Source: Desulfatiglandales bacterium
GTDB taxonomy: Bacteria > Desulfobacterota > DSM-4660 > Desulfatiglandales > Desulfatiglandaceae
Direction of reading: 5' to 3'
Length of the DNA stretch: 64,000 nt
Assembly (NCBI GenBank): GCA_963662465.1
Contig: OY759599.1
Location: 2,592,001-2,656,000 of the forward strand
The notes under the pieces are model-generated. The model was not told the DNA's origin, did no database searches, and saw only the letters and a list, made by a program, of their open reading frames with translations. The position numbers and the translations under genes are program-made. Below, one piece after another: positions 5,007 to 61,854 of the stretch; positions within the stretch are counted from its first letter, which is position 1; every line of letters begins with the position of its first letter.

Positions 5007-8000
5007 TCATGCAAAAAAATCCACGGCGTTTTCATGGCGCATCGCTTTCGGGGTGGCATCCGCTCGTTCGGATTTTTCATCCTGCCTGGTATTCCCTTCC
5101 CTTTTTTGCCCGGCTCTCCCCTTTGTTCGATTGGCCGGTGAAGGGTTATATCCCGCCCCGTTTTTGTCTGAATCCTGGGACAGGGAAACATCAAATTTTT
5201 CAATCTCCAGTCCCTGGTTCTGAAAGTCCGCTTTGAGCTGATGGAGATTATGCTCAATCATCTCCTTGGCGACCAAGGTGTCTACCATCACTTTTACGGT
5301 AACCTGATGACTCTCGGTTAAAATACGAATTCTTAAATGCCCCAATGATTCCGGATGGAGCGACATTTTAACTTCCGATCGGCCATTTTTCAGAAGGAAC
5401 GCCGCAGTCCTGAACAACTGACCGAAACCGTTGCTCCCCTCTGACCGTTTCGGCAGTTCTTTCTCGTTGTCCGGGGCAACGATGGTATTGCTGTTATCGG
5501 ATATGGTGTACGTTTTCGGCGTTGCCTGTGTGTCCTCACCACTGACAGATTCCAGCTTTTCTGAAAGGTTATGGGAGATCTTTCCTTGGAATTGATTCGA
5601 TTTTTCAGATTCAGCCTGACCTTCTCGTTGTTCGGTGTTGGATTTTGAGGATTGCGTTTCCAATTCCAAGGCGCCGGCGGCCGCCCCAATGTTTGCTTTA
5701 AATCCGTCAGACGGTTCTTTTTGCCTCTTCTCGCCCTTTTCAGTCACGCTTACTTCGCCGACGCCGCTTCGGATGGCACGAAGAGAATCTGAAAACAGCG
5801 GGTTCTCCTTCCCTGCCGATGAACTCTCCCCGGAACCGCTTAAGATATTGCCGGTGGTTTTTGTTGCGTTAGATGACAACTCAGGGGTTGCGGAGGCTTT
5901 TTTTTTATCAACCACCGGTCGGGGGGATAATTCCTGGACCTTGGCCGAAAGCTTGACTCCATTCTCGGAAACCCCAGTCTCTTTCAAACCTGAAGCTTGG
6001 AACGATCCGCTCTCAGTCTTCCCAACAACCACTTTCCCGTTTTCTTTCCTGACAACCTTATCAACAGGGGCCTTGACGCCGCCTTTCGCAGGGGTTTTCC
6101 CTTCCGGCAACGGCTCGGGGATTGCCGATGTTGCCTTTTTATCAACCGCCAGCCGGGAAGATGATTCCTGGGCCTTGGCCGGAAGCTTGCCTCCATTCTC
6201 GGAAGACTCAGTCTCTTTCAAACCTGAAGCTTGAAACGATCCGCTCTCAGTCTTCCCAGCAACCACTTTCCCCATTTCTTTCCTGACAGCCTGATCAATA
6301 GGGGCCTTTACGCCCGCTTTCACAGGGGTTTTCGCTTCAGGCATCGGCTCGGGGTTTGACGATGTTGCCTTTTTATCAACCGCCAGCCGGGAAGATGATT
6401 CCTGGGCCTTGGCCGGAAGCTTGCCTCCATTCTCGGAAACCCCAGTCTCTTTCAAACCTGAAACTTGAAACGATCCGCTCTCAGTCTTCCCAACAACCAC
6501 TTTCCCCATTTCTTTCCTGACAACTTGATCAACAGTCGCTTTCACGCCGCCTTTCACAGGGGTTTTCGTTTCAGGCATTGGCTCGGGATTTGACGATGTT
6601 GTCTTTTTTTCAACCGCTGGCCGGGGGGATGATGCCTGGGCCTTATCCGAAAGCTTGACTCCATTCTCGGAAGACTCAGTCTCTTTCAAACCTGAAGCTT
6701 GGAACGATCCGCTCTCAGTCTTCCCAACAACCACTTTCCCCATTTCTTTCCTGACAACTTGATCAACAGTCGCTTTCACGCCGCCTTTCACAGGGGTTTT
6801 CGTTTCAGGCATTGGCTCGGGATTTGACGATGTTGTCTTTTTTTCAACCGCTGGCCGGGGGGATGATGCCTGGGCCTTATCCGAAAGCTTGACTCCATTC
6901 TCGGAAGACTCAGTCTCTTTCAAACCTGAAACTTGAAACAATCCGCTCTCAGTCTTCCCAACAACCACTTTCCCCATTTCTTTCTTGACAACTTGATCAA
7001 CAGACGCTTTCACGCCGCCTTTCACAGGGATTTTCGTTTCAGGCATTGGCTCGGGATTTGACGATGTTGTCTTTTTTTCAACCGCCGGCCGGGGGGATGA
7101 TGCCTGGGCCTTATCCGAAAGCTTGACTCCATTCTCGGAAGACTCAGTCTCTTTCAAACCTGAAGCTTGGAACGATCCGCTCTCAGTCTTCCCAACAACC
7201 ACTTTCCCCATTTCTTTCTTGACAACTTGATCAACAGACGCTTTCACGCCGCCTTTCGCAGGGGTTTTCGCTTCACTCAATGGCTCGGGGTTTGACGAGG
7301 TTGTCTTTTTTTCAACCCTGAGCCGGGGGGATGATGCCTGGGCCTTATCCGAAAGATTGACTCCATTCTCGGAAGACTCAGTCTCTTTCAAACCTGAACC
7401 TTGAAACGATCCGCTCTCAGTCTTCCCAATAACCATTTTCCCGTTTTCTTTCCCGGCAAGCTCAAAAACAGGCGCTTTCACGCCGCCTTTCGCAGGGGTT
7501 TTCGTTTCAGGCATTGGCTCGGGGTTTGACAATGTTGTCTTTTTTTCAACCACCGGCCGGGGGGATGATGCCTCTGCCTTATCCGAAAGCTTGACTCCAT
7601 TCTCGGAAGACTCAGTCTCTTTCAAACCTGAAGCTTGAAACAATCCGCTCTCAGTCTTCCCAACAACCACTTTCCCCATTTCTTTCCTGACAGCCTGATC
7701 AACAGGGGCCTTTACGCCAGCTTTCACAGAGGTTTTCGCTTCAAGCATCGGCTCAGGGTTTGACAATGTTGTCTTTTTTTCAACCGCCGGCCGGGGAGAT
7801 GATGCCTGGGCCTTATCCGAAAGATTTGCTCCTCGCTCAGAAACCCCAGATTCTTTCAAACCTGAAACTTGAAACGATCCGCTCTCAGTCTTCCCAACAA
7901 CCACTTTCCCCATTTCTTTCCTGACAGCCTGATCAACAGGGGCCTTTACGCCAGCTTTCACAGAGGTTTTCGCTTCAAGCATCGGCTCGGGGTTTGATGA

Positions 8001-10910
8001 TGTTGACTTTTTATCAACCGCCGGTCGGGGGGATGATGCCTGGGCCTTATCCGAAAGATTTGCTCCTCGCTCAGAAACCCCAGATTCTTTCAAACCTGAA
8101 CCTTGAAACGATCCGCTCTCAGTCTTCCCAACAAACACTTTCCCCATTTCTTTCCTGACAACTTGATCAACAGTCGCTTTCACGCCGCCTTTCACAGGGG
8201 TTTTCGTTTCAGGCATTGGCTCGGGATTTGACGATGTTGTCTTTTTTTCAACCGCTGGCCGGGGGGATGATGCCTGGGCCTTATCCGAAAGCTTGACTCC
8301 ATTCTCGGAAGACTCAGTCTCTTTCAAACCTGAAACTTGAAACAATCCGCTCTCAGTCTTCCCAACAACCACTTTCCCCATTTCTTTCTTGACAACTTGA
8401 TCAACAGACGCTTTCACGCCGCCTTTCACAGGGATTTTCGTTTCAGGCATTGGCTCGGGATTTGACGATGTTGTCTTTTTTTCAACCGCCGGCCGGGGGG
8501 ATGATGCCTGGGCCTTATCCGAAAGCTTGACTCCATTCTCGGAAGACTCAGTCTCTTTCAAACCTGAAGCTTGGAACGATCCGCTCTCAGTCTTCCCAAC
8601 AACCACTTTCCCCATTTCTTTCTTGACAACTTGATCAACAGACGCTTTCACGCCGCCTTTCGCAGGGGTTTTCGCTTCACTCAATGGCTCGGGGTTTGAC
8701 GAGGTTGTCTTTTTTTCAACCCTGAGCCGGGGGGATGATGCCTGGGCCTTATCCGAAAGCTTGACTCCATTCTCGGAAGACTCAGTCTCTTTCAAACCTG
8801 AAGCTTGGAACGATCCGCTCTCAGTCTTCCCAACAACCACTTTCCCCATTTCTTTCTTGACAACTTGATCAACAGACGCTTTCACGCCGCCTTTCGCAGG
8901 GGTTTTCGCTTCACTCAATGGCTCGGGGTTTGACGAGGTTGTCTTTTTTTCAACCCTGAGCCGGGGGGATGATGCCTGGGCCTTATCCGAAAGCTTGACT
9001 CCATTCTCGGAAGACTCAGTCTCTTTCAAACCTGAAGCTTGAAACGATCCGCTCTCAGTCTTCCCAATAACCACTCTCCCGTTTTCTTTCCTGACAACCT
9101 TATCAACAGGGGCCTTGACGCCGCCTTTCGCAGGGGTTTTCCCTTCCGGCAACGGCTCGGGGATTGCCGATGTTGCCTTTTTATCAACCGCCAGCCGGGA
9201 AGATGATTCCTGGGCCTTGGCCGGAAGCTTGACTCCATTCTCGGAAGACTCAGTCTCTTTCAAACCTGAACCTTGAAACGATCCGCTCTCAGTCTTCCCA
9301 ACAACCACTTTCCCCATTTCTTTCCTGACAGCCTGATCAACAGGGGCCTTTACGCCAGCTTTCACAGAGGTTTTCGCTTCAAGCATCGGCTCAGGGTTTG
9401 ACAATGTTGTCTTTTTTTCAACCGCCGGCCGGGGAGATGATGCCTGGGCCTTATCCGAAAGATTTGCTCCTCGCTCAGAAACCCCAGATTCTTTCAAACC
9501 TGAAACTTGAAACGATCCGCTCTCAGTCTTCCCAACAACCACTTTCCCCATTTCTTTCCTGACAGCCTGATCAACAGGGGCCTTTACGCCAGCTTTCACA
9601 GAGGTTTTCGCTTCAAGCATCGGCTCGGGGTTTGATGATGTTGACTTTTTATCAACCGCCGGTCGGGGGGATGATGCCTGGGCCTTATCCGAAAGATTTG
9701 CTCCTCGCTCAGAAACCCCAGATTCTTTCAAACCTGAACCTTGAAACGATCCGCTCTCAGTCTTCCCAACAAACACTTTCCCCATTTCTTTCCTGTCAAC
9801 CTCATCAACAGGGGCCTTTACGCCGGCTTTCACAGAGGTTTTCGCTTCAGGCATCGGCTCGGAGTTTGACGATGTTGTCTTTTTTTCAACCGCCTGCCGG
9901 GAAGATGATGCCTCTGCCTTCTCCGAAAGATTTGCTCCTCGCCCAGAAACCCCAGATTCTTTCAAACCTGGAACTTTAAACGATCCGCTCTTAGTCTTCC
10001 CAACAAACACTTTCCCCATTTCTTTCCTGACAACCTGATCAACAGGGGCATTGACGCCGGCTTTCACAGGGGTTTTCACTTCACTCAATGGCTCGGGGTT
10101 TGACGAGGTTGTCTTTTTTTCAACCGACAGCCGGGGGGATAATGCCTGGGCCTTCTCCGAAAGATTTGCTCCATCCTCGGAAACCCCAATCTCTTTCAAC
10201 TCAGAACCCTGAAACGCCTGTACATCATTCTTTCCAACACCCGGTTTATCAACTTCAACGCCCACTATCGATTCCCCAGTGGATTTAAACTTCTCTTTTA
10301 TGGGCAATTCCGAACTGGGACTCTTTTCAACGTTCAAAGGCATCGTAATAGGCCTGCCGCCCTGCCCTTTCATGGTCAGGGTTATGCGGCCGGTTTCGAT
10401 CGATTTTTTGGGGGTATTCAGAACGTTGATTTCCGTTTCCGATCCTGCTGAAACTGAAATAGGTTCATCTGCATGTTGTCCACTCAAAAGCGGCGTCATC
10501 AATCCCGGCAAAATCGCCTGTTCCGACTCTTCTGCCATCGGATTCACCGTCAAATCTTTGGATTCTCCATCAAACTCCCGGGTTTCCTCATCCAATTTGC
10601 CGGATTCGGCTTTTACGGATTTGGATTCGAACCGATGCCGAGGATTGGCGCCGCTCACGGCTTTCCCTGAAACAACCGAACCTTTTTCATCCTTGGCGTT
10701 CTCACCCTTTTTCCAGCCCGAAACACCATGAGAGGAAAAACCGGCCTTATGCTCATCAGCCACGGCCGCAAAGGTGGAAAGAAAACCATTCCCACTCTGC
10801 TCCGATTCACAAACCCCTTTGGGAGTTCTTGAAAAAACCGCATCTTGATGTGGCATTATGAGGATGTTGTTCAGCATATTCTTGTTTCCGGATAGTCTTA
10901 AGAGAAACAT
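5007..10910 (-). CDS. fliK: Flagellar hook-length control protein FliK, giant and repeat-expanded (1,967 aa; start may be Met at 10877)
   Basis: C-terminal domain VKMSLHPESLGHLRIRI...KEMIEHNLHQLKADFQNQGLEIEKFDV ending VDFFA; canonical fliK-flgD-flgE order. Confidence 0.9.
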   Translation of the reverse strand: MFLLRLSGNKNMLNNILIMPHQDAVFSRTPKGVCESEQSGNGFLSTFAAVADEHKAGFSSHGVSGWKKGENAKDEKGSVVSGKAVSGANPRHRFESKSVKAESGKLDEETREFDGESKDLTVNPMAEESEQAILPGLMTPLLSGQHADEPISVSAGSETEINVLNTPKKSIETGRITLTMKGQGGRPITMPLNVEKSPSSELPIKEKFKSTGESIVGVEVDKPGVGKNDVQAFQGSELKEIGVSEDGANLSEKAQALSPRLSVEKKTTSSNPEPLSEVKTPVKAGVNAPVDQVVRKEMGKVFVGKTKSGSFKVPGLKESGVSGRGANLSEKAEASSSRQAVEKKTTSSNSEPMPEAKTSVKAGVKAPVDEVDRKEMGKVFVGKTESGSFQGSGLKESGVSERGANLSDKAQASSPRPAVDKKSTSSNPEPMLEAKTSVKAGVKAPVDQAVRKEMGKVVVGKTESGSFQVSGLKESGVSERGANLSDKAQASSPRPAVEKKTTLSNPEPMLEAKTSVKAGVKAPVDQAVRKEMGKVVVGKTESGSFQGSGLKETESSENGVKLPAKAQESSSRLAVDKKATSAIPEPLPEGKTPAKGGVKAPVDKVVRKENGRVVIGKTESGSFQASGLKETESSENGVKLSDKAQASSPRLRVEKKTTSSNPEPLSEAKTPAKGGVKASVDQVVKKEMGKVVVGKTESGSFQASGLKETESSENGVKLSDKAQASSPRLRVEKKTTSSNPEPLSEAKTPAKGGVKASVDQVVKKEMGKVVVGKTESGSFQASGLKETESSENGVKLSDKAQASSPRPAVEKKTTSSNPEPMPETKIPVKGGVKASVDQVVKKEMGKVVVGKTESGLFQVSGLKETESSENGVKLSDKAQASSPRPAVEKKTTSSNPEPMPETKTPVKGGVKATVDQVVRKEMGKVFVGKTESGSFQGSGLKESGVSERGANLSDKAQASSPRPAVDKKSTSSNPEPMLEAKTSVKAGVKAPVDQAVRKEMGKVVVGKTESGSFQVSGLKESGVSERGANLSDKAQASSPRPAVEKKTTLSNPEPMLEAKTSVKAGVKAPVDQAVRKEMGKVVVGKTESGLFQASGLKETESSENGVKLSDKAEASSPRPVVEKKTTLSNPEPMPETKTPAKGGVKAPVFELAGKENGKMVIGKTESGSFQGSGLKETESSENGVNLSDKAQASSPRLRVEKKTTSSNPEPLSEAKTPAKGGVKASVDQVVKKEMGKVVVGKTESGSFQASGLKETESSENGVKLSDKAQASSPRPAVEKKTTSSNPEPMPETKIPVKGGVKASVDQVVKKEMGKVVVGKTESGLFQVSGLKETESSENGVKLSDKAQASSPRPAVEKKTTSSNPEPMPETKTPVKGGVKATVDQVVRKEMGKVVVGKTESGSFQASGLKETESSENGVKLSDKAQASSPRPAVEKKTTSSNPEPMPETKTPVKGGVKATVDQVVRKEMGKVVVGKTESGSFQVSGLKETGVSENGGKLPAKAQESSSRLAVDKKATSSNPEPMPEAKTPVKAGVKAPIDQAVRKEMGKVVAGKTESGSFQASGLKETESSENGGKLPAKAQESSSRLAVDKKATSAIPEPLPEGKTPAKGGVKAPVDKVVRKENGKVVVGKTESGSFQASGLKETGVSENGVKLSAKVQELSPRPVVDKKKASATPELSSNATKTTGNILSGSGESSSAGKENPLFSDSLRAIRSGVGEVSVTEKGEKRQKEPSDGFKANIGAAAGALELETQSSKSNTEQREGQAESEKSNQFQGKISHNLSEKLESVSGEDTQATPKTYTISDNSNTIVAPDNEKELPKRSEGSNGFGQLFRTAAFLLKNGRSEVKMSLHPESLGHLRIRILTESHQVTVKVMVDTLVAKEMIEHNLHQLKADFQNQGLEIEKFDVSLSQDSDKNGAGYNPSPANRTKGRAGQKREGNTRQDEKSERADATPKAMRHENAVDFFA
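5880..10240 (-). repeat. Intragenic tandem repeat, 234 bp / 78 aa unit, about 18.5 copies
   Basis: Anchor ccgctctcagtcttccc recurs every 234 bp (6241 and 8581 are 10 units apart); 18 GKT(E/K)SG motifs plus one degenerate N-terminal unit. Confidence 0.95.
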
Positions 10911-30899: not shown

Positions 30900-32285
30900 T
30901 CATTCCAAATGGGTCAGCACCGCATCGCCATCGCCGGTCACCAGGGGGTTCTGCTTTCGGTTGACTTCCCTGCCTGCCCAGTAGGGCACTTCGTCCTGCA
31001 GGTAGGCCTTCATCTCCCCCGTTGTGATCTTCTTATCCCCGTTCTTGTCGGCCTTGCCGCCCAACCCTTTCAAAAAAAAGTAGGTAAAGAGGCTGTGGCG
31101 CTTGGCCGGATACCAGGCGCAGACCTGATCCTTGTCCGCTCCGCAAAAGACCGCGCCGTTGGCCATTTTCCGTACGGGCTGTTTACTTTTGAGCATGCCC
31201 GGACTGATTTTTTTAAACAGCGGCCCCGCAGCCGAATACCCTGAAAAACAAGCATCCAGCACCACGGTCACCTCTTTTGCGGGCAGTTTGGTAAGGATAT
31301 CGTAGAACAGGGCCAGGGAGTAGCCGTTGTTAATGATGTAATCCACCGCCGCATCCACCGGCACCAGGTAGTTGGCGCCCCCACCGGGTCCCGGGGCGCC
31401 ATGTCCCACATAATAGATAAAAACCTCGGATCGACCGCTTCGAATAAAACGATGCAGTATCCCCTCGGGATTCTCCTTGCTGCCGAAGATGTTGCGCATA
31501 TCCCCGCTTGAAACATCGGTGCGATAGATAATGTTTGCGGGATCATACCCCATGACCTGCACCAGGTATCGGCGTACCGCCACAGCATCCCGCTCAGCAT
31601 ATTTCACATCCGAAAGCCCTTTCTTTTCCGCTTCATACCGCTGGTTGCCGATGACCACGGCCACCCCGTAAGGTCTTTTAATGGCGCCGCGGGGAATATC
31701 CGTATCCACATCCACATCCACAGTCCCGGAGACCTCATTTTCCTTCAGGTAATCGTTTAAGAGCCTCTTGTAGCAGGTCGTCACCCGCCCGTCATCCGGC
31801 CATCGTTTGGCCGCTTTTTGCGCCACCTCGATGGCATTGGGAAAATCCCCGTTGGCGGCATGGGCATTGGCCAGGGTTTCAAGTATCTCCGGGGAACCGG
31901 GGTCCAGGTCCGCCGCCTTTTGGGCATGGGCAAGGGCGCCCTTTATATTGTCGCCCCGCTTGATCATCACCGATGCCAGGTTGTTGTGCCGGAGGGCTTG
32001 ACTGCCGTCCATTTTAACAGCCATCTCCAGATATTTTTGAGCCCGCGCCATATCCCCATATCCGTACCAGGCTGTCCCCAGATTGTAAGCAAACGATGCA
32101 TCCTCCGGGCAGAGACGGTAGGCTTTCAAAAAGAGATCCACCCCTCTTTTCTTGTCCTTTTTATAGGCTTCGGCGGCCTTTTCCGCCACATCCCGGGCAA
32201 CGCCGCAGGTGTCCGCCGCCTCAACGGTCCCGGCAAACAGAACCATAAGCCCGACCCCTATCAAAACAAATGTTTTCAGCGCCAT
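30900..32285 (-). CDS. Probably exported TPR plus caspase-like (peptidase C14) protein
   Basis: Start MALKT after a GGAGG RBS, signal-like N-terminus ending VEA, TPR motifs (AYNLG, HNNLA), AVVIGN..Y, catalytic YYVGHG and LDACFSG, HSLFTYFFLKGL. Confidence 0.88.
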   Translation of the reverse strand: MALKTFVLIGVGLMVLFAGTVEAADTCGVARDVAEKAAEAYKKDKKRGVDLFLKAYRLCPEDASFAYNLGTAWYGYGDMARAQKYLEMAVKMDGSQALRHNNLASVMIKRGDNIKGALAHAQKAADLDPGSPEILETLANAHAANGDFPNAIEVAQKAAKRWPDDGRVTTCYKRLLNDYLKENEVSGTVDVDVDTDIPRGAIKRPYGVAVVIGNQRYEAEKKGLSDVKYAERDAVAVRRYLVQVMGYDPANIIYRTDVSSGDMRNIFGSKENPEGILHRFIRSGRSEVFIYYVGHGAPGPGGGANYLVPVDAAVDYIINNGYSLALFYDILTKLPAKEVTVVLDACFSGYSAAGPLFKKISPGMLKSKQPVRKMANGAVFCGADKDQVCAWYPAKRHSLFTYFFLKGLGGKADKNGDKKITTGEMKAYLQDEVPYWAGREVNRKQNPLVTGDGDAVLTHLE

Positions 32286-32473
32286 CTTATCCTTTCCTCC
32301 CTGTTTACAACCGTTGGTTCCGGAAGCCCCATCCTTGTTCGCATGCTCCGCGTCCCATGGGTGTGAATTTTTCACTCGTGCATCTATCACAGTGTAAACC
32401 GAAAGATAAAAGATGCCGAATTAGAGTGTTTTTATTATTGTCTTTAAACCCTTGCCGGCGTATCATGACCCCC

Positions 32474-32650
32474 ATGAAACTCGTAAAGAGCCAACGTGAG
32501 CATCTGGGTAAATATTTCTTTGACCTGTCAAAAATCGTAGCCGGCATTTATGTTTTTACGGGCCTTCCGGATAAACCCGTGCTGTTTTTATTGGGACTGG
32601 TCATCGCTTTGATTTTCCTGCTTGTCGGCCTCATTCTAACAAAAGGATAA
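32474..32650 (+). CDS. Small membrane protein (58 aa)
   Basis: MKLVKSQREHLGKYFFDLSK followed by two hydrophobic segments; coupled to the next small ORF. Confidence 0.6.
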   Translation: MKLVKSQREHLGKYFFDLSKIVAGIYVFTGLPDKPVLFLLGLVIALIFLLVGLILTKG

Positions 32651-32654
32651 TCGC

Positions 32655-32741
32655 ATGACAGTAACATTGATTCTACTGGGCGTGGCGGTCGCCGTGCTGA
32701 TATGGGCATATAAAATCACTCGGGAACCTCGGTCAGACTAA
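32655..32741 (+). CDS. Very small single-TM peptide (28 aa)
   Basis: MTVTLILLGVAVAVLIWAYKITREPRSD; AAGGA RBS, 4 nt after the previous stop; below the ORF-track cutoff. Confidence 0.45.
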   Translation: MTVTLILLGVAVAVLIWAYKITREPRSD

Positions 32742-32930
32742 CGAAATCAGCTTATCCCGGAAGAGCCCGACTCCCCACACCCTCAAAGCGGTAAAAGCCG
32801 CGCAGGGACCTTCGCGAGGCCATCCAGCCCCGCTAGCGGCCCCGACACGGAACATCACTTTTTGCCCCGCCGCAGCGAGGACGGGATTTTCTCAGGGTCA
32901 GCGGGCCGGCATCCGCCAAGGCCCGGTGAG

Positions 32931-33060
32931 CTGAAGAAAAGGCAAGCCGAAACCCGAGGTTGTTGTTCCGGTTGCCGGGCGTGTTCCTGTTGCGATTGGC
33001 CGACCGGCAGTTCCCGGCGTTGTTGTTCCAGCCACCGCCCCGGTTCACCCGGTTCGAGCC
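32931..33060 (-). ncRNA. DGR template repeat (TR)
   Basis: 130-nt copy of the target 3' end with 13 AAY codons (GSNRVNRGGGWNNNAGNCRSANRNRNTPGNRNNNLGFRLAFSS). Confidence 0.93.
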
Positions 33061-33457
33061 TTCAGAGAAAACCCGTAGTCACGAAACTTCCGAACAAATC
33101 TTTTCTTGCTTGAAGTTGCCAAGCGAATTTTTCCCGGCAGCGTCTCATAAGTATTCAGTATGCGGCGAAACAAATCAAGGAGTTCTTTGTCCTTGAAGCG
33201 CCTTCCCAGATACCGCAACAGTATTTCATGGTCGATTGAGTTGAAATATTTGGCGATATCCAGCTTCAGATACCAGTCGAAGCACCGTGAAAACCCCTGG
33301 GCCCGCTCAATGGCCTTGCGTCCTCCCTTCCCTTTTCAGCAGGCGTAGGAATCGAAAATAGCATAGGCGTCAAGGGTTTCTTCGCAAACATTCATAATGG
33401 CGTGATGCACGGGACCCGTTCCCTAATTTTATGATAAAGGTTGCCGGTCCGTTTCAT
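33045..33457 (-). pseudogene. DGR reverse transcriptase remnant
   Basis: MKRTGNLYHKI start overlapping the HRDC gene end, RERV/frameshift/HHAIMNV, DSYAC*KGKG (TGA at 33336-33338), WYLKLDIAKYFNSIDH, RRFKD; no GLPIG..SQ or YxDD segment. Confidence 0.9.
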
Positions 33458-33935
33458 CCGTCTGCTTTACGCCTTCCGGGGCATTCCGATCACCGGCCAA
33501 GATCCCCAAAACCGCATTTCCGTATTTCTTCACCCGAGCCTCCCCGACGCCTGAAATTTCCTTCAGTTCCATTTTCGATGCGACCTTTTTCGTCGCCATC
33601 TCCGCCAATTGTCCGTTGGTAAAGACAATGTAGACCGGCACGGCCTCCTTCTCGGCAACCTGCTTTCGCCAGTCCCTGAGCTTTACAAAAAGGGCAAAAT
33701 CAGCGGGCGAAAGAATTTCCCGGTAATCCACCCGCTTTCTGCCCGCGTCTTTTGGCGATGTATCGCCGTCGGACATATATTCCACGGCCATGGTCCAGAA
33801 AGAGTTTTCGCCCTGGCTCACGAATTCCCGGTGTACGGTGAGGATGCGCTGTGAGCGTAAAAAGTGATTGAGTTCCATTTCCACTTCCCGGGTTGTCTTA
33901 AGCGGGATGGTGAAGAATTTATATTGTATGGTCAT
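33429..33935 (-). CDS. HRDC-domain DGR accessory protein
   Basis: LFVKLRDWRKQVAEKEAVPVYIVFTNGQLAEM...ISGVGEARVKKYG HRDC signature; lies between target and RT. Confidence 0.88.
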   Translation of the reverse strand: MTIQYKFFTIPLKTTREVEMELNHFLRSQRILTVHREFVSQGENSFWTMAVEYMSDGDTSPKDAGRKRVDYREILSPADFALFVKLRDWRKQVAEKEAVPVYIVFTNGQLAEMATKKVASKMELKEISGVGEARVKKYGNAVLGILAGDRNAPEGVKQTDETDRQPLS

Positions 33936-33992
33936 TGAAAACCCCTTTATGGTTCCCGGACGGGAACATGTGCAAGCTCATTTAATCACCCA

Positions 33993-34072
33993 CGCGAGCC
34001 CCCGAGATTGTGCCGATGGAATGCTTCCGGCTTCGCACGGGCATTCCAACGGCCCAATCCCCGGGGCTCGCG
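33993..34072. other. Long hairpin/cruciform immediately 3' of the VR
   Basis: Arms 33993-34024 and 34041-34072 pair at 28/32 positions around a 16-nt loop, starting 1 nt after the target stop codon. Confidence 0.85.
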
Positions 34073-34073
34073 C

Positions 34074-35189
34074 TCACTGACCTGATGAAAAGGCAAGCCG
34101 GAACCCCAGGCCGCCGCTCCGGTCGCCGGGCGTGCCCCCGCCGCGATAGGCCGACCGGCAGAGCCCGGCGAAGTCGCCCCAGCCGCCGCCCCGGTCCACC
34201 CGGTCCGAGCCCGAAGAAGGCCCTGTAGGATCAGTCACTGAACCGGAGGGATAATCGCCGTACCAGTCCTCGCACCACTCCCAGACATTGCCGTGCAGGT
34301 CATACAAGCCCCAGTTATTGGGTTGTTTCGTTCCCACACCATGGGCATATTTATCGCCAACATCCCAGGCATTTTTGTCATACCAGGCATAACTTCCGAG
34401 CTGTCCATCGCTATCCCCGAAACAAAATTGCGTGGTTGAACCGGCTCGGCAGGCGTATTCCCATTCGGCTTCCGTCGGCAAACGATATTTGTGGGTCCCC
34501 TCTTTGCCATTCAACCTCTGAATAAACGCCTTGCAATCCTCCCACGACACATAAACAGCCGGGTTGTTCGCATTTTCCTGTACATAGTCCTTGCCCGACC
34601 ATGGCCTGCTCCCCATCACCTTCTCCCACTGCCCCTGGGTCACCTCCGTGGTCTGCATGTAATACCCTTTGGTCAGGGTCACCCGGTGCTGTTTCTCATC
34701 ATTATCCCGTCCCGACTCTCCCGATGGGCTCCCCATCATGAAACTCCCCGGCGGAATATACACAAATGCCATCCCCAGGCTGTTGGTCACTTTCCCGGCG
34801 GCCACGGGCTGCACTACGACCGGTCGCACCGGCGGCGCCACCCGCACCGCCGTAAGCCCGATATCGACATTTTCGTCCTGCTCCGCCGAAAGGGTCACCC
34901 ACCGTTTTTCCGTCTCATATCCTTCCGCAGACACCTCCACATGGTATCGCCCCGGTTCCAGTTCCATCCCCTGGTAAAAGGCCGGCCCGATGTTCAAAAT
35001 CCGCACCCGCGCATTCTCGGGCATGGTCTTCACAAACAAACGGGCAGGCTTCGGCTCAGGGAGCTTCTGCTCCCACACCGGCTCGAATTTTTCAACAAAC
35101 CATGCCCGGCCGTGGGGCGTATGGAGGAAGAGGCACCCCAGGATGCAGGCAAGACTGAAAAGGGCTTTTATCTTTGATCGTTTGGTCAT
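34074..35189 (-). CDS. DGR target: signal/TM + PEGA-like + FGE-sulfatase (CLec-fold) protein
   Basis: Hydrophobic N-terminus, PGRYHVEVSAEGY, FMMGSP, TEVTQGQW, YRLPTEAEWEYACRAG, GLYDLHGNVWEWC, terminal RGGGW...CRSA...GFRL; start set at MTKRS. Confidence 0.93.
   Translation of the reverse strand: MTKRSKIKALFSLACILGCLFLHTPHGRAWFVEKFEPVWEQKLPEPKPARLFVKTMPENARVRILNIGPAFYQGMELEPGRYHVEVSAEGYETEKRWVTLSAEQDENVDIGLTAVRVAPPVRPVVVQPVAAGKVTNSLGMAFVYIPPGSFMMGSPSGESGRDNDEKQHRVTLTKGYYMQTTEVTQGQWEKVMGSRPWSGKDYVQENANNPAVYVSWEDCKAFIQRLNGKEGTHKYRLPTEAEWEYACRAGSTTQFCFGDSDGQLGSYAWYDKNAWDVGDKYAHGVGTKQPNNWGLYDLHGNVWEWCEDWYGDYPSGSVTDPTGPSSGSDRVDRGGGWGDFAGLCRSAYRGGGTPGDRSGGLGFRLAFSSGQ
34082..34211 (-). repeat. DGR variable region (VR)
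   Basis: Ungapped alignment to TR (offset 1151): 21 mismatches at TR adenines and 4 at non-A positions, 3 of them in the 3' IMH-like end. Confidence 0.93.
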
Positions 35190-35352
35190 TTTATACTCTT
35201 CTTTTCCAAAAAAGTTCTTGAGGGACGCGGAGCGTCCTGAAAGGTTCCTAATCAAATTACCATTTAAGTGAATATTCCAGAGGGAGTCAAGGAGAATGTC
35301 AACGGTCCGGGGCCGGTAAAGAGGTATCCGTTATTGCCGGCCTCCTCCCCGT

Positions 35353-35502
35353 TTTGAACACGATTCACAGGATTTAACACGATGAACAGGATTAGAAGAC
35401 GGAGGACAAACAAGTTCCTTCAGACCCCTACACCCTTTTGTTGGCCTTATCGCGGTCAATGGCAATCCTGTCCATCATTTAATCTTTTAAATCGTGTTCA
35501 AA
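35353..35502. repeat. MITE/REP-like element with ~40-bp imperfect terminal inverted repeats
   Basis: TTTGAACACGATT (35353) pairs with AATCGTGTTCAAA (35490); GATGAACAGGATT (35381) pairs with AATCCTGTCCATC (35464). Confidence 0.6.
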
Positions 35503-35583
35503 CATTATATGCTGAGGCTGTTGGGTACTGGATTGGGGATGAACGGAGATATGAAATGAACTGGGAGTTATTTTCGGAGAATT

Positions 35584-35962: not shown

Positions 35963-36994
35963 TTATTTCCTCCCATTTCCATCGCATCCCGGTCCCACCC
36001 AATAGCTTAACACCACCTCATTCCAGTCCGTTGCCGAATGGAGCGCCTCTAAAACCTTTTTCATGTCGCCACCCCTTGCACCGGCGTAAACCTGTTCCTC
36101 CGGGATGGGAAGAAAGGAAAAATCGATGGGTTTGCGGCTGACAATCACTTTGATGGACTCCTGGCACAATTCGTCTTCTTTCAGGGGATAAAACACCAGT
36201 TGCACATCGCCTGCCAATGCGGGCGGCGGGAACCGGAAGGTTCCCGACGGCAGGGGCTGGTCGCCCATCCTGCCGTTGGGGTAAAACAGGGAAACGGTGT
36301 AATCGGCCGCCACGCCCAGGATATACAGATGGACGCCCGGTTCCGTTTCGACGGAAATAATCGCCGGAACGCCGGGGGGATAACATGCGGGCCGTCGATC
36401 CAGCCAGGCCTTGATTTTCGGTCGGTTGAGGGATTGGGCATCCGGAGCGATGGCCTCGATACCCCGATGATAGATATTTCCCCTTTTGAGAGACGCCTGC
36501 TGTTCCCATCCCGGAGAAAGCGCCTCCCGATAAATGACCGTCCTGACCACAGTCCCATCCTTCATCCGCAGGGCCTTTATCACCAGGCGGATAGCGGGTT
36601 TTCCGCCGGAATGGGTCGGCCCGTACTCAATGGCGTATGTTCCGGTCACCACCACGTCGGCCCCGGCGTGGTCAAGGATGTTCCGGCCGCCGGACCCAAA
36701 CATCTCCATTTCATCCTGGATGACCCCCAGCTCTTTCCGGGATTTGACGACCACCCCCCGATCCGAAAGACAGGCTTCCACCCGGGTGCGAAATCGGTCG
36801 CCAAGGGCGGTGATGTCCCCCGATTTTTCTTCATGGACGGGACAAACAGCCGCGGTTTCACCCTTTCGCATTCGGTCTGCGATTTTTCCGATTTCCGTTT
36901 CGAAACCGGCCGCGAAAACAGGGGAAAGAGATGTCAAAATCACGACGACATAAAGGGCTGAAAAAAGGACGGGGATGGGTAAAGATTGTTTCAT
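35963..36994 (-). CDS. Probably exported protein with FlgO/CsgG-like N-domain and DUF4384-like C-domain
   Basis: Start MKQSL after an AGGAG RBS, signal peptide ending VFA, GADVVVTGTY motif, C-terminal HLYILGVAADYTVSLFYPN...ESIKVIVSRKPI. Confidence 0.62.
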   Translation of the reverse strand: MKQSLPIPVLFSALYVVVILTSLSPVFAAGFETEIGKIADRMRKGETAAVCPVHEEKSGDITALGDRFRTRVEACLSDRGVVVKSRKELGVIQDEMEMFGSGGRNILDHAGADVVVTGTYAIEYGPTHSGGKPAIRLVIKALRMKDGTVVRTVIYREALSPGWEQQASLKRGNIYHRGIEAIAPDAQSLNRPKIKAWLDRRPACYPPGVPAIISVETEPGVHLYILGVAADYTVSLFYPNGRMGDQPLPSGTFRFPPPALAGDVQLVFYPLKEDELCQESIKVIVSRKPIDFSFLPIPEEQVYAGARGGDMKKVLEALHSATDWNEVVLSYWVGPGCDGNGRK

Positions 36995-37205
36995 GGGATT
37001 CTCCTGTGTGCATCCTACCGAGGAAGCCGGGATTTGGGAAAGCTTACCCCTTTCCGATCCCCATGTCAAAAACCAACACCCTATGGCCATCTTTTTCCCG
37101 GCTGTGGGGGCCTTCAATCTCCCCGACTTTTTTCTTGATGTCAAAAACGCCTTTGTTTATTACCTGCTGTTGTCGGACCTACAAAGCACTGCACGACATC
37201 TAATT

Positions 37206-37233
37206 GTAGGGGCAGGCCCCTGTGCCTGCCCTG
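37206..37233 (+). repeat. GTAG-type REP-like palindrome
   Basis: GTAG-GGGCAGGC-CCCTGT-GCCTGCCC; near-identical copies at 60431 (reverse) and 61772. Confidence 0.8.
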
Positions 37234-37470
37234 ATGTGACCAATATGGACCATCAGGATATCAAAACCATGGTTGACTTAGGTCGCTATTTTTCCATATT
37301 CGCTCCGATAAGGTGTGATCAGTAAAAACTGTAATGAAGAGTTCCTTTCAAGAATACGGCCTGTTTTGCTTTGTATCCAAAGGTTTTATATGGTAAATAT
37401 GGTTTCACAATTTCCTGAACCGGAATGCCTAACATATCTTTGCGGGAAATATAATTTAAGGAGGCAATAG

Positions 37471-60366: not shown

Positions 60367-60457
60367 GTAGGGGCAATCCCCCCGTGGTTGCCCTGCCTGT
60401 CCTTTCTTTCGATGCTTGGACAGCATCAGCAGGGCAGGCACAGGGGCCTGCCCCTAC
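60367..60457. repeat. REPIN-like doublet of inverted GTAG REP-like palindromes
   Basis: GTAGGGGCAATCCCCCCGTGGTTGCCCT (60367, +) and AGGGCAGGCACAGGGGCCTGCCCCTAC (60431, -). Confidence 0.78.
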
Positions 60458-60474
60458 AATAACATCCAGCGCCT

Positions 60475-61771: not shown

Positions 61772-61798
61772 GTAGGGGCAGGCCCCCGTGCCTGCCCT
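61772..61798 (+). repeat. GTAG-type REP-like palindrome
   Basis: GTAGGGGCAGGCCCCCGTGCCTGCCCT, 4 nt after the Rpn stop. Confidence 0.8.
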
Positions 61799-61854
61799 GC
61801 CCCTGTGCCTACCCTGAAGATACGGTATGAACCACCAAACAAACCTCTCCCCTT

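Follow-up and report, generated by a model that had tools for sequence, protein, structure and literature searches.

Does the diversity-generating retroelement (DGR) that lies in a 64,000-nucleotide (nt) stretch of a Desulfatiglandales bacterium genome still work? The stretch, here called the window, covers positions 2,592,001 to 2,656,000 of contig OY759599.1 (assembly GCA_963662465.1), and coordinates are those of the window unless stated otherwise. A preliminary description, made from the letters alone, had reported a DGR that has hypermutated an exported protein with PEGA and FGE/CLec domains. An HRDC-type DGR and past hypermutation of its target were both found, but the cassette cannot work on its own now. 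The locus is best read as a recently fossilized HRDC-type DGR, with a probability of about 75%.

The source genome (G000) is one contig of 8.16 Mb. On the minus strand of the window the cassette has the order target gene, hairpin, HRDC gene, reverse transcriptase (RT) sequence, template repeat (TR) and conserved spacer (Table 1). It is labeled cassette A, and three further cassettes are present in the genome: B (1.133 Mb, HRDC-type), C (404 kb) and D (3.60 Mb), the last two Avd-type. RT2 and TR2 are the RT and TR of cassette B, and VR3, at 7.469 Mb, is the variable repeat (VR) that matches TR2. Comparison was made with the congener genomes G003, G005, G007 and G008 and with the metagenome locus L168.

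Template and Variable Repeats

The TR at 33060-32931 and the VR at 34211-34082 had been described as aligning without gaps over 130 nt. This was exact, and the repeat extends to 134 nt (to 32927 and 34078, respectively). Recounting the variable part (to 32948) gave the same 21 changed adenines of 28, with 16 changed to G, four to T and one to C, and the TR and VR peptides read as claimed. Four non-adenine differences are present in the 130 nt (33034, 32956, 32950 and 32935), all synonymous as reported, and a fifth, at 32930 within the 134 nt, is non-synonymous. A lack of mismatch enrichment at TR adenines had been named as a refuting outcome; the enrichment was pronounced (21/30 adenines compared to 5/104 other bases, Fisher p=3.6e-13). 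In this pair 81% of mismatches face an adenine; the cut-off given in bioRxiv 2020.04.01.020958 is 75%.

The 28 variable adenines of TR1 are at codon position 1 (n=15) or position 2 (n=13), with none at position 3. None of them can give a stop, and about 2e16 protein variants are possible. The diversity of 4^28 that had been put forward is a capacity that the cassette once held; it belongs to the past only, as the RT has been destroyed.

Both the PEGA domain (aa 51-113, E 2e-9) and the FGE-sulfatase domain (aa 142-366, E 2e-44) of the target passed the Pfam cut-offs. The best PDB match was Treponema TvpA (2y3c, E 3e-31), and the orthologs in G005 and G007 are 61-74% identical. By eye the N-terminus resembles a signal peptide, which suggests that the target is exported, and the PEGA domain might anchor it to the cell wall. 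It was the CLec (FGE-sulfatase-like) end that the DGR hypermutated.

As had been observed, the TR lies downstream of the RT and overlaps its end, the RT frame covering the first 16 nt of the TR. This overlap is natural, because the intact RT frames in G005 and G008 likewise end 16 nt inside the TR. TR1 has one target: an ungapped scan of the whole genome returned only TR1, VR1, VR3 and TR2, with no further site resembling TR1 or TR2, and the next best site had mismatches at 46/104 non-adenine positions. VR3 was rejected as a target of TR1, being closer to TR2 (7 non-adenine differences compared to 20). Based on the TR/VR bias, the target fold, the accessory gene and the RT clade, the window cassette is a DGR of the HRDC-accessory kind.

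Reverse Transcriptase Pseudogene

RT motifs had been reported between the two repeats. What lies there is a 413-nt pseudogene without any catalytic motif, scoring 17.8 bits against RVT_1 (cut-off 29.6 bits; a profile search of the genome gave 47 RVT_1 matches). Measured against the intact RTs of G005, G008 and L168 it keeps 413 of about 1044 nt, a loss of about 60% of the length. Relative to G005, deletions of 207, 279 and 147 nt have junctions near 33425/33424, 33137-33129 and 33075/33074, respectively; the 147-nt deletion is one of 171 nt relative to L168, which has extra sequence there. The 279-nt deletion falls at a 9-nt direct repeat and takes out both the SQ and the YMDD motif. A 2-nt insertion near 33411 and a TGA stop at 33338-33336 are also present. 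Autonomy was judged by whether the cassette contains an intact RT that carries the SQ and YxDD motifs; here both motifs are deleted and the frame is interrupted by a frameshift and a stop. As its sequence stands, the cassette is unable to work autonomously.

Each of the three deletions has a length divisible by 3 (naive chance 1 in 27, with one explained by the 9-nt repeat), so that the RT stub would have remained in frame up to the TR until the insertion and the stop arose. A contig from another sample (X3) spans 33184-33361 with no differences, the stop included, and the stop is therefore not an assembly error.

The peptide of 33045-33457 had been taken for a DGR-clade RT. Phylogeny bore this out, although the peptide is below the RVT_1 cut-off. 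The remnant, which fills 28% of the columns, clustered with the intact DGR RTs of L168, G005 and G008 (support 100/98) and separately from six group II intron RTs encoded in the genome. From the alignments 11/75 RT references and 2/60 HRDC references were omitted, in most cases because they were near-duplicates or contained insertions. Over 92 columns the remnant shares 85% identity with the RT of L168. The RTs of L168, G005 and G008 carry SQ and YMDD motifs and have TRs or TR/VR pairs. When the 69 aa of the remnant were searched alone, the best PDB matches were group II intron RTs and the DGR RT structure was not listed; the placement thus rests on the orthologs.

The ratio of non-synonymous to synonymous substitution rates (dN/dS) was 0.05-0.11 between the remnant and the three intact RTs and 0.07-0.12 among the intact RTs. 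No signal of relaxed selection on the HRDC gene or the RT remnant was given by dN/dS, a test of low power at dS values of 0.6-2.1. A private change in the remnant was found at one of 44 conserved codons, namely the stop. As a rough estimate, the death of the RT was recent, on the order of 1% divergence.

Drift Between the Repeats

Drift was assessed against a reference set of 56 TR/VR pairs from related RT loci and against four congener pairs. Over the first 124 columns the window pair has non-adenine differences at 3/96 sites compared to 2/373 in the congener pairs (p=0.06). When the window and cassette B were pooled, 9/184 sites differed (p=0.001 against the congener pairs). The 20 columns after the last changed adenine hold two non-adenine differences in the window; 52 of the 56 reference pairs have none there, three have one and one has two.

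The three non-adenine differences at the 3' end had been attributed to the initiation of mutagenic homing sequences (IMH versus IMH*). This would fit the last one or two only. Those at 32956 and 32950 are atypical for the family and are unlikely to be its IMH/IMH* difference, because 52/56 reference pairs have no difference in that region. By comparison with outgroups the difference at 32950 arose in the TR and that at 32956 in the VR. At 32930 the C/G difference is found again in cassette B and in the remote pair of G008. Over 124 columns TR1 differs from its G005, G008 and L168 counterparts at 7-9 non-adenine sites. Since the window repeats have begun to drift at non-adenine sites where intact relatives rarely differ, homing has probably stopped.

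Contigs assembled from the sample runs X1, X3, X4 and X6 were aligned to the window at 80% likeness, and 40 of 328 differences were listed. Within these limits VR polymorphism was seen at one TR-adenine column, as the TR letter. An X3 contig (depth 5.9) had an identical 3' half of the VR (34078-34151, 16 TR-adenine columns) and a flanking single-nucleotide polymorphism. The RNA run gave only unlike contigs at the TR, with 18-23 differences, and X4 and X6 gave only unlike sequence.

Several observations weigh against a fossilized cassette. The drift test for the window alone was not significant, and the variable core, with differences at 1/67 non-adenine sites, is normal (14/56 reference pairs have one). 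The HRDC gene, TR, spacer and hairpin are undamaged, and the genome also encodes an RT of this clade whose frame is open and which retains YMDD. At 34162, a TR-adenine column, a second letter was found in X1 and X3 among the differences listed; this letter matches the TR and could stem from TR-like contigs or from those of other strains.

On the reading of recent fossilization, RNA of the TR and the structured 3' spacer would have been copied by the RT with the help of the HRDC protein and with errors at adenines, as expected from the family. The complementary DNA would then have replaced the 3' end of the target upstream of the hairpin, varying the ligand-binding surface of an exported PEGA-CLec protein. 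The 21 of 28 changed adenines are the footprint of adenine-specific rewriting of the VR from this TR. The RT was later destroyed by deletions, a frameshift and a stop. Homing would have ceased at this point, leaving the VR frozen on one Gly-rich variant while TR and VR started to drift. The target is intact in a conserved three-gene neighborhood, as in congeners fully without the machinery.

Other Cassettes in the Genome

No cassette in the genome is complete, and in each family one retains the RT and the other retains the accessory gene. Cassette B encodes an open RT2 of 334 aa with SQ and YMDD motifs, the only HRDC-clade RT in the genome besides the window remnant. Its best PDB match was 8ub7, which we take to be the BPP-1 RT (E 1.4e-40, compared to 5e-16 for group II RTs). 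RT2 has Thr at position 191 (A191T), where 63/63 relatives have Ala, and further changes at conserved columns (R18H and K110I). The cassette has its own TR2 and no adjacent target, and its HRDC gene lacks the 5' part and carries a 1-nt frameshift; the only whole DGR-type HRDC gene in G000 is that of the window.

TR2 and VR3 differ at 23 adenines and 7 non-adenine sites. VR3 (7,469,359-7,469,492) ends a 1243-aa InlB-repeat/Ig/FGE gene at 7.469 Mb, in the region 7,465,768-7,469,600. In the core of this pair 4/71 non-adenine sites differ, which is more drift than in the window, and 2/56 reference pairs reach four. Because the hairpin that follows VR3 is a homolog of the one after the cis target of genome G004, cassette B was probably split from its own cis target by rearrangement. 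Measured around the circle, this former target now lies at a distance of 1.8 Mb, and behind it is a gene pair that by eye resembles a toxin-antitoxin pair. Both halves of cassette B are followed by a near-identical region with a YhgA-like transposase. Upstream of the broken HRDC gene, G000 1,131,814-1,132,560 contains an AT-rich GrpB-family gene and then a palindrome that by eye is attC-like.

Cassette C has an open RT-MutS_I frame, an Avd gene with a TAG stop at 403.8 kb, and three full and one partial Lcl_C-type VRs. The full VRs have 0-2 non-adenine differences, and cassette C is the best candidate in the genome for a live or just-killed DGR. In cassette D the Avd gene is intact, the RT is split by an insertion sequence and frameshifted, and the two VRs have no non-adenine differences. 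Three bAvd matches were found in the genome, all away from the window cassette.

Alternative Explanations

Cassette A has HRDC and no RT, and B has an RT and a broken HRDC gene; C has an RT and an Avd gene with TAG, and D has Avd and a broken RT. The HRDC protein and TR1 of the window could on this inventory work with the RT of cassette B and still diversify VR1 (perhaps VR3), with the Avd pair behaving alike. The 3' spacer fold is common to A and B, trans action of DGR parts is documented in PMC5758913 and bioRxiv 2023.09.22.558884, and the RT deletions, as multiples of 3, look as if translation up to the TR had been kept for a time. Under length-proportional scatter the odds of the lesion placement come to 0.017 in the HRDC pair and 0.11-0.30 in the Avd pair, but these odds are post hoc and one of the in-frame deletions is explained by the 9-nt direct repeat. 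Both HRDC-type TR/VR pairs have drifted, and RT2 carries its three changes (A191T, R18H and K110I) at conserved columns. The partners come from different subclades (HRDC 47% and RT 56-67% identical), and the tearing of B from its cis target would explain the HRDC loss without selection. The intact state of RT2 and the HRDC gene was ruled out as proof of selection by simulation, since about 1% neutral drift leaves RT2 open with P 0.37-0.73 and HRDC open with P 0.63-0.85 without selection. Cross-complementation is on balance unlikely.

Less probable again is that the dead RT is one allele of a mixed population, or in part an assembly consensus, while co-occurring strains keep an active cassette. 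In X1 the HRDC gene does occur as two haplotypes, with 0 and 26 differences over 33468-33733, and the RT has a divergent haplotype at 33209-33219. In Thiohalocapsa a single DGR locus is found in both intact and disrupted form (bioRxiv 2023.09.22.558884). The second X1 haplotype is, however, about 10% divergent and represents another lineage, not a sister allele. Five separate lesions are no sequencing error, the stop recurs in X3, and among the matches listed no contig of high identity carried additional sequence across a deletion junction. An ordinary partial gene duplication with an adenine bias by chance would accommodate the five non-adenine differences and the group II intron RTs as best PDB matches of the 69-aa remnant. 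It is refuted by the mismatch enrichment (p=3.6e-13), the intact ortholog cassettes with pure A-to-N pairs and the tree placement, and deserves almost no credence.

Decay of the Machinery in Related Loci

The closest HRDC relatives have open RTs in G005, G008 and L168. Loci L166 and L167 keep the HRDC gene and spacer and have lost the RT and TR, while L174 and L175/L176 keep only the HRDC start and have likewise lost the RT and TR. The G004 RT lacks its C-terminal part through a 121-nt deletion. In G007 and G003 the target and the TPR-caspase gene are side by side with no machinery between them, and neither genome (95 and 89% complete, respectively) yielded an RT or HRDC of this type. Judging by these loci, loss of the machinery with retention of the target is the usual fate in this clade. 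A TR-plus-spacer search of 209 genomes of the order matched 17 (up to three candidates per genome scored).

Repetitive extragenic palindromic (REP)-like palindromes flank the block of HRDC, RT, TR and spacer in several relatives (L132:1120-1145, L134:6815-6845, L168:2015-2029 and L176:3970-3995). They are also found at the junction where the block is absent in G003 and G007. Flanking the block and marking this junction as they do, the palindromes suggest that the machinery was excised via the repeats.

HRDC Accessory Protein

The HRDC gene reported between the repeats is real, with a Pfam HRDC match above cut-off (E 8e-19). The protein consists of an unannotated N-terminal beta-alpha-beta-beta domain and a basic HRDC domain (pI 9.6). 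In the protein model the predicted local distance difference test score (pLDDT) was 87 overall and 94 in the N-terminal domain, and the HRDC fold aligned to 1wud with Z 14.3 and a root-mean-square deviation of 1.3 over 77 residues. The N-terminal 56 aa (33762-33935) are conserved across 58 sequences, with W47 invariant and N23, F25 and L26 at 90% or more. The model predicts a three-quarter ferredoxin-like fold for this domain. It matched no Pfam family and no PDB sequence under E 0.2, its best Atlas score was 0.75, and its structural matches reached only Z 5.5, to ACT/S6/NikR-like domains. An Avd-like oligomer ring was considered as a candidate form of this domain, to which these searches gave no clear match. 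The domain could be an oligomerization or RT-binding module.

An HRDC homolog was found beside 74/80 RT2-related loci, and 57/80 had a TR/VR pair within the fetched DNA. Three RT rows with stops and rows below 270 aa were left out of this neighborhood survey. By their record titles the loci span several phyla. HRDC is thus the standard helper of a broad RT clade and no rarity. By analogy with the family, the HRDC protein would have served in place of Avd.

Hairpin and 3' Spacer

The hairpin noted between the repeats is real (-46 kcal/mol as DNA, z -5.3, with 0/200 shuffles as good). The same type of hairpin, with substitutions, follows the VRs in G003, L174 and L176. By analogy with BPP-1 it may be a target-recognition element. 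Rfam gave only a chance microRNA match for the hairpin (E 0.14), which was rejected, and no relevant match for the spacer at 32798..32926.

The spacer, common to cassettes A and B, was aligned from seven sequences at 72% mean identity. Its predicted fold has three stem-loops and 39 pairs, 12 with two-sided change, and a covariation term of only -0.48; the single-sequence fold had z -1.8. The spacer is likely the part of the RNA bound by the RT.

Neighboring Genes and Repeats

In G007 an ortholog of the upstream neighbor, 75% identical, lies immediately before the target. The TPR-caspase gene directly follows the target in G007 and G003, both without DGR machinery at the locus. No phage genes were seen beside the chromosomal cassette, with no dedicated phage scan run. 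A promoter and terminator scan was uninformative (5 and 8 sites compared to 2.7 and 5.3 expected).

A single-copy element at 32440-32770 follows the spacer and contains a small hydrophobic ORF at about 32465-32650 (+). Related sequence is found right after HRDC in L166, L167, L168 and L174 and also in genome G010, and the element seems to travel with these cassettes. A repeat of roughly 190 nt at 35315-35506, upstream of the target, recurs dozens of times across the genome, with a tandem run near 1.48 Mb among these copies. At 5880-10157 a unit of 234 nt (78 codons) is repeated in tandem at least 18 times, the copies being 80-92% alike; the array probably encodes a large surface protein of repetitive structure. 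A short palindromic repeat rich in GC occurs in three copies (37198-37236, 60427-60465 and 61772-61843).

Table 1. Features of the window cassette, its neighbors and the other DGR cassettes of the genome. Rows for cassettes B to D are in G000 coordinates.
Feature	Position	Strand	Evidence or remark
Target gene, 371 aa, intact	34074..35189	-	PEGA and CLec/FGE-sulfatase-like domain ending in VR
Variable repeat VR1	34078..34211	-	21/30 TR adenines and 5/104 other bases changed; G000 2,626,078-2,626,211
Long hairpin/cruciform directly after target stop codon	33993..34072	-	Inverted repeat, arms 33993-34024 and 34041-34072
HRDC accessory gene, 168 aa, intact; end overlaps RT start	33429..33935	-	Pfam HRDC
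RT pseudogene	33045..33457	-	Alignments to RT2, G005, G008, L168
Template repeat TR1	32927..33060	-	TR/VR alignment
Conserved 3' spacer after TR	32798..32926 (about)	-	7-sequence alignment
Upstream neighbor, putative exported protein	35963..36994	-	DUF4384 weak match, E 1.6e-4, below cut-off
Downstream TPR-caspase (Peptidase_C14) gene	30900..32285	-	Pfam
Cassette B	1,132,900-1,134,560; RT part 1,133,289-1,134,293		HRDC-type, 1.5 Mb from window
Cassette C	402,415-409,001; VRs also 591,994-592,133, 7,189,395-7,189,457		Avd-type
Cassette D	3,598,000-3,606,200		Avd-type

Comparison with Known Systems

HRDC-type DGRs ("Architecture C") made up 14/372 in PMC5758913. The type example, the TvpA DGR of Treponema denticola (PMC5758913, PMC4891356), resembles the window in its CLec/FGE target, an HRDC gene overlapping the RT start, a cassette without Avd, adenine-specific TR/VR differences and leftover targets in relatives without the core. 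In T. denticola, too, relatives have lost the machinery and retained the target (PMC4891356). It differs in that HRDC lies between TR and RT (PMC5758913), whereas the window has the order target-hairpin-HRDC-RT-TR. The PEGA domain of the target, the DUF4384-like and TPR-caspase neighbors and the RT pseudogene are features of the window only.

DGRs with inactivated RTs are described in PMC3521204. As here, the RT is broken by a stop or frameshift and the repeats still show mainly adenine changes; such DGRs are read there as recently inactivated, with non-adenine differences expected as decay proceeds. The window RT differs in having five lesions, including three internal deletions, and non-adenine drift has begun. 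Thiohalocapsa PB-PSB1 (bioRxiv 10.1101/2023.09.22.558884) likewise has several DGR loci in an 8-Mb genome rich in mobile elements, with missing or pseudogenized parts and peptidase/caspase neighbors, and use of an RT or TR in trans was proposed there. It has one complete locus per class, whereas the present genome has none in either family and shows mirror-image damage within each. The DGR of Bordetella phage BPP-1 (PMC3240598) is alike in the hairpin downstream of the VR, which marks the target there, and in a TR with a downstream spacer. BPP-1 differs in having Avd where the window has HRDC, a stem of 7-10 bp compared to 32 bp, and a (GC)14 run that is absent here, and the window cassette is chromosomal.

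The neighboring caspase gene recalls DGR-linked conflict systems (PMC7159879, bioRxiv 2023.09.22.558884); MoxR/vWA genes were neither seen nor sought beside it. DGRs with dead RTs and degenerate loci with proposed activity in trans are already published, which leaves reciprocal complementation as the one unusual possibility. A search that mostly excluded subscription papers turned up no description of a pair of incomplete cassettes with reciprocal complementation, and the DGR tables of PMC5758913 may hold similar cases. If complementation were true, the DGRs of this genome would have undergone subfunctionalization, and the window would supply the HRDC protein and the template to an RT that lies 1.5 Mb away. 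Such a system would offer a naturally occurring genetic means of probing what the HRDC protein does. It would also mean that RTs and accessories are interchangeable between cassettes of about 50-65% identity, a point of importance to DGR biology and to DGR-based mutagenesis tools.

Read as a recently fossilized DGR, the window is a clean snapshot of DGR death, in which the RT went first by internal deletions, the target stays with a frozen variant and congeners represent later stages. It is also a warning that a perfect-looking TR/VR pair is not the same as a working DGR.

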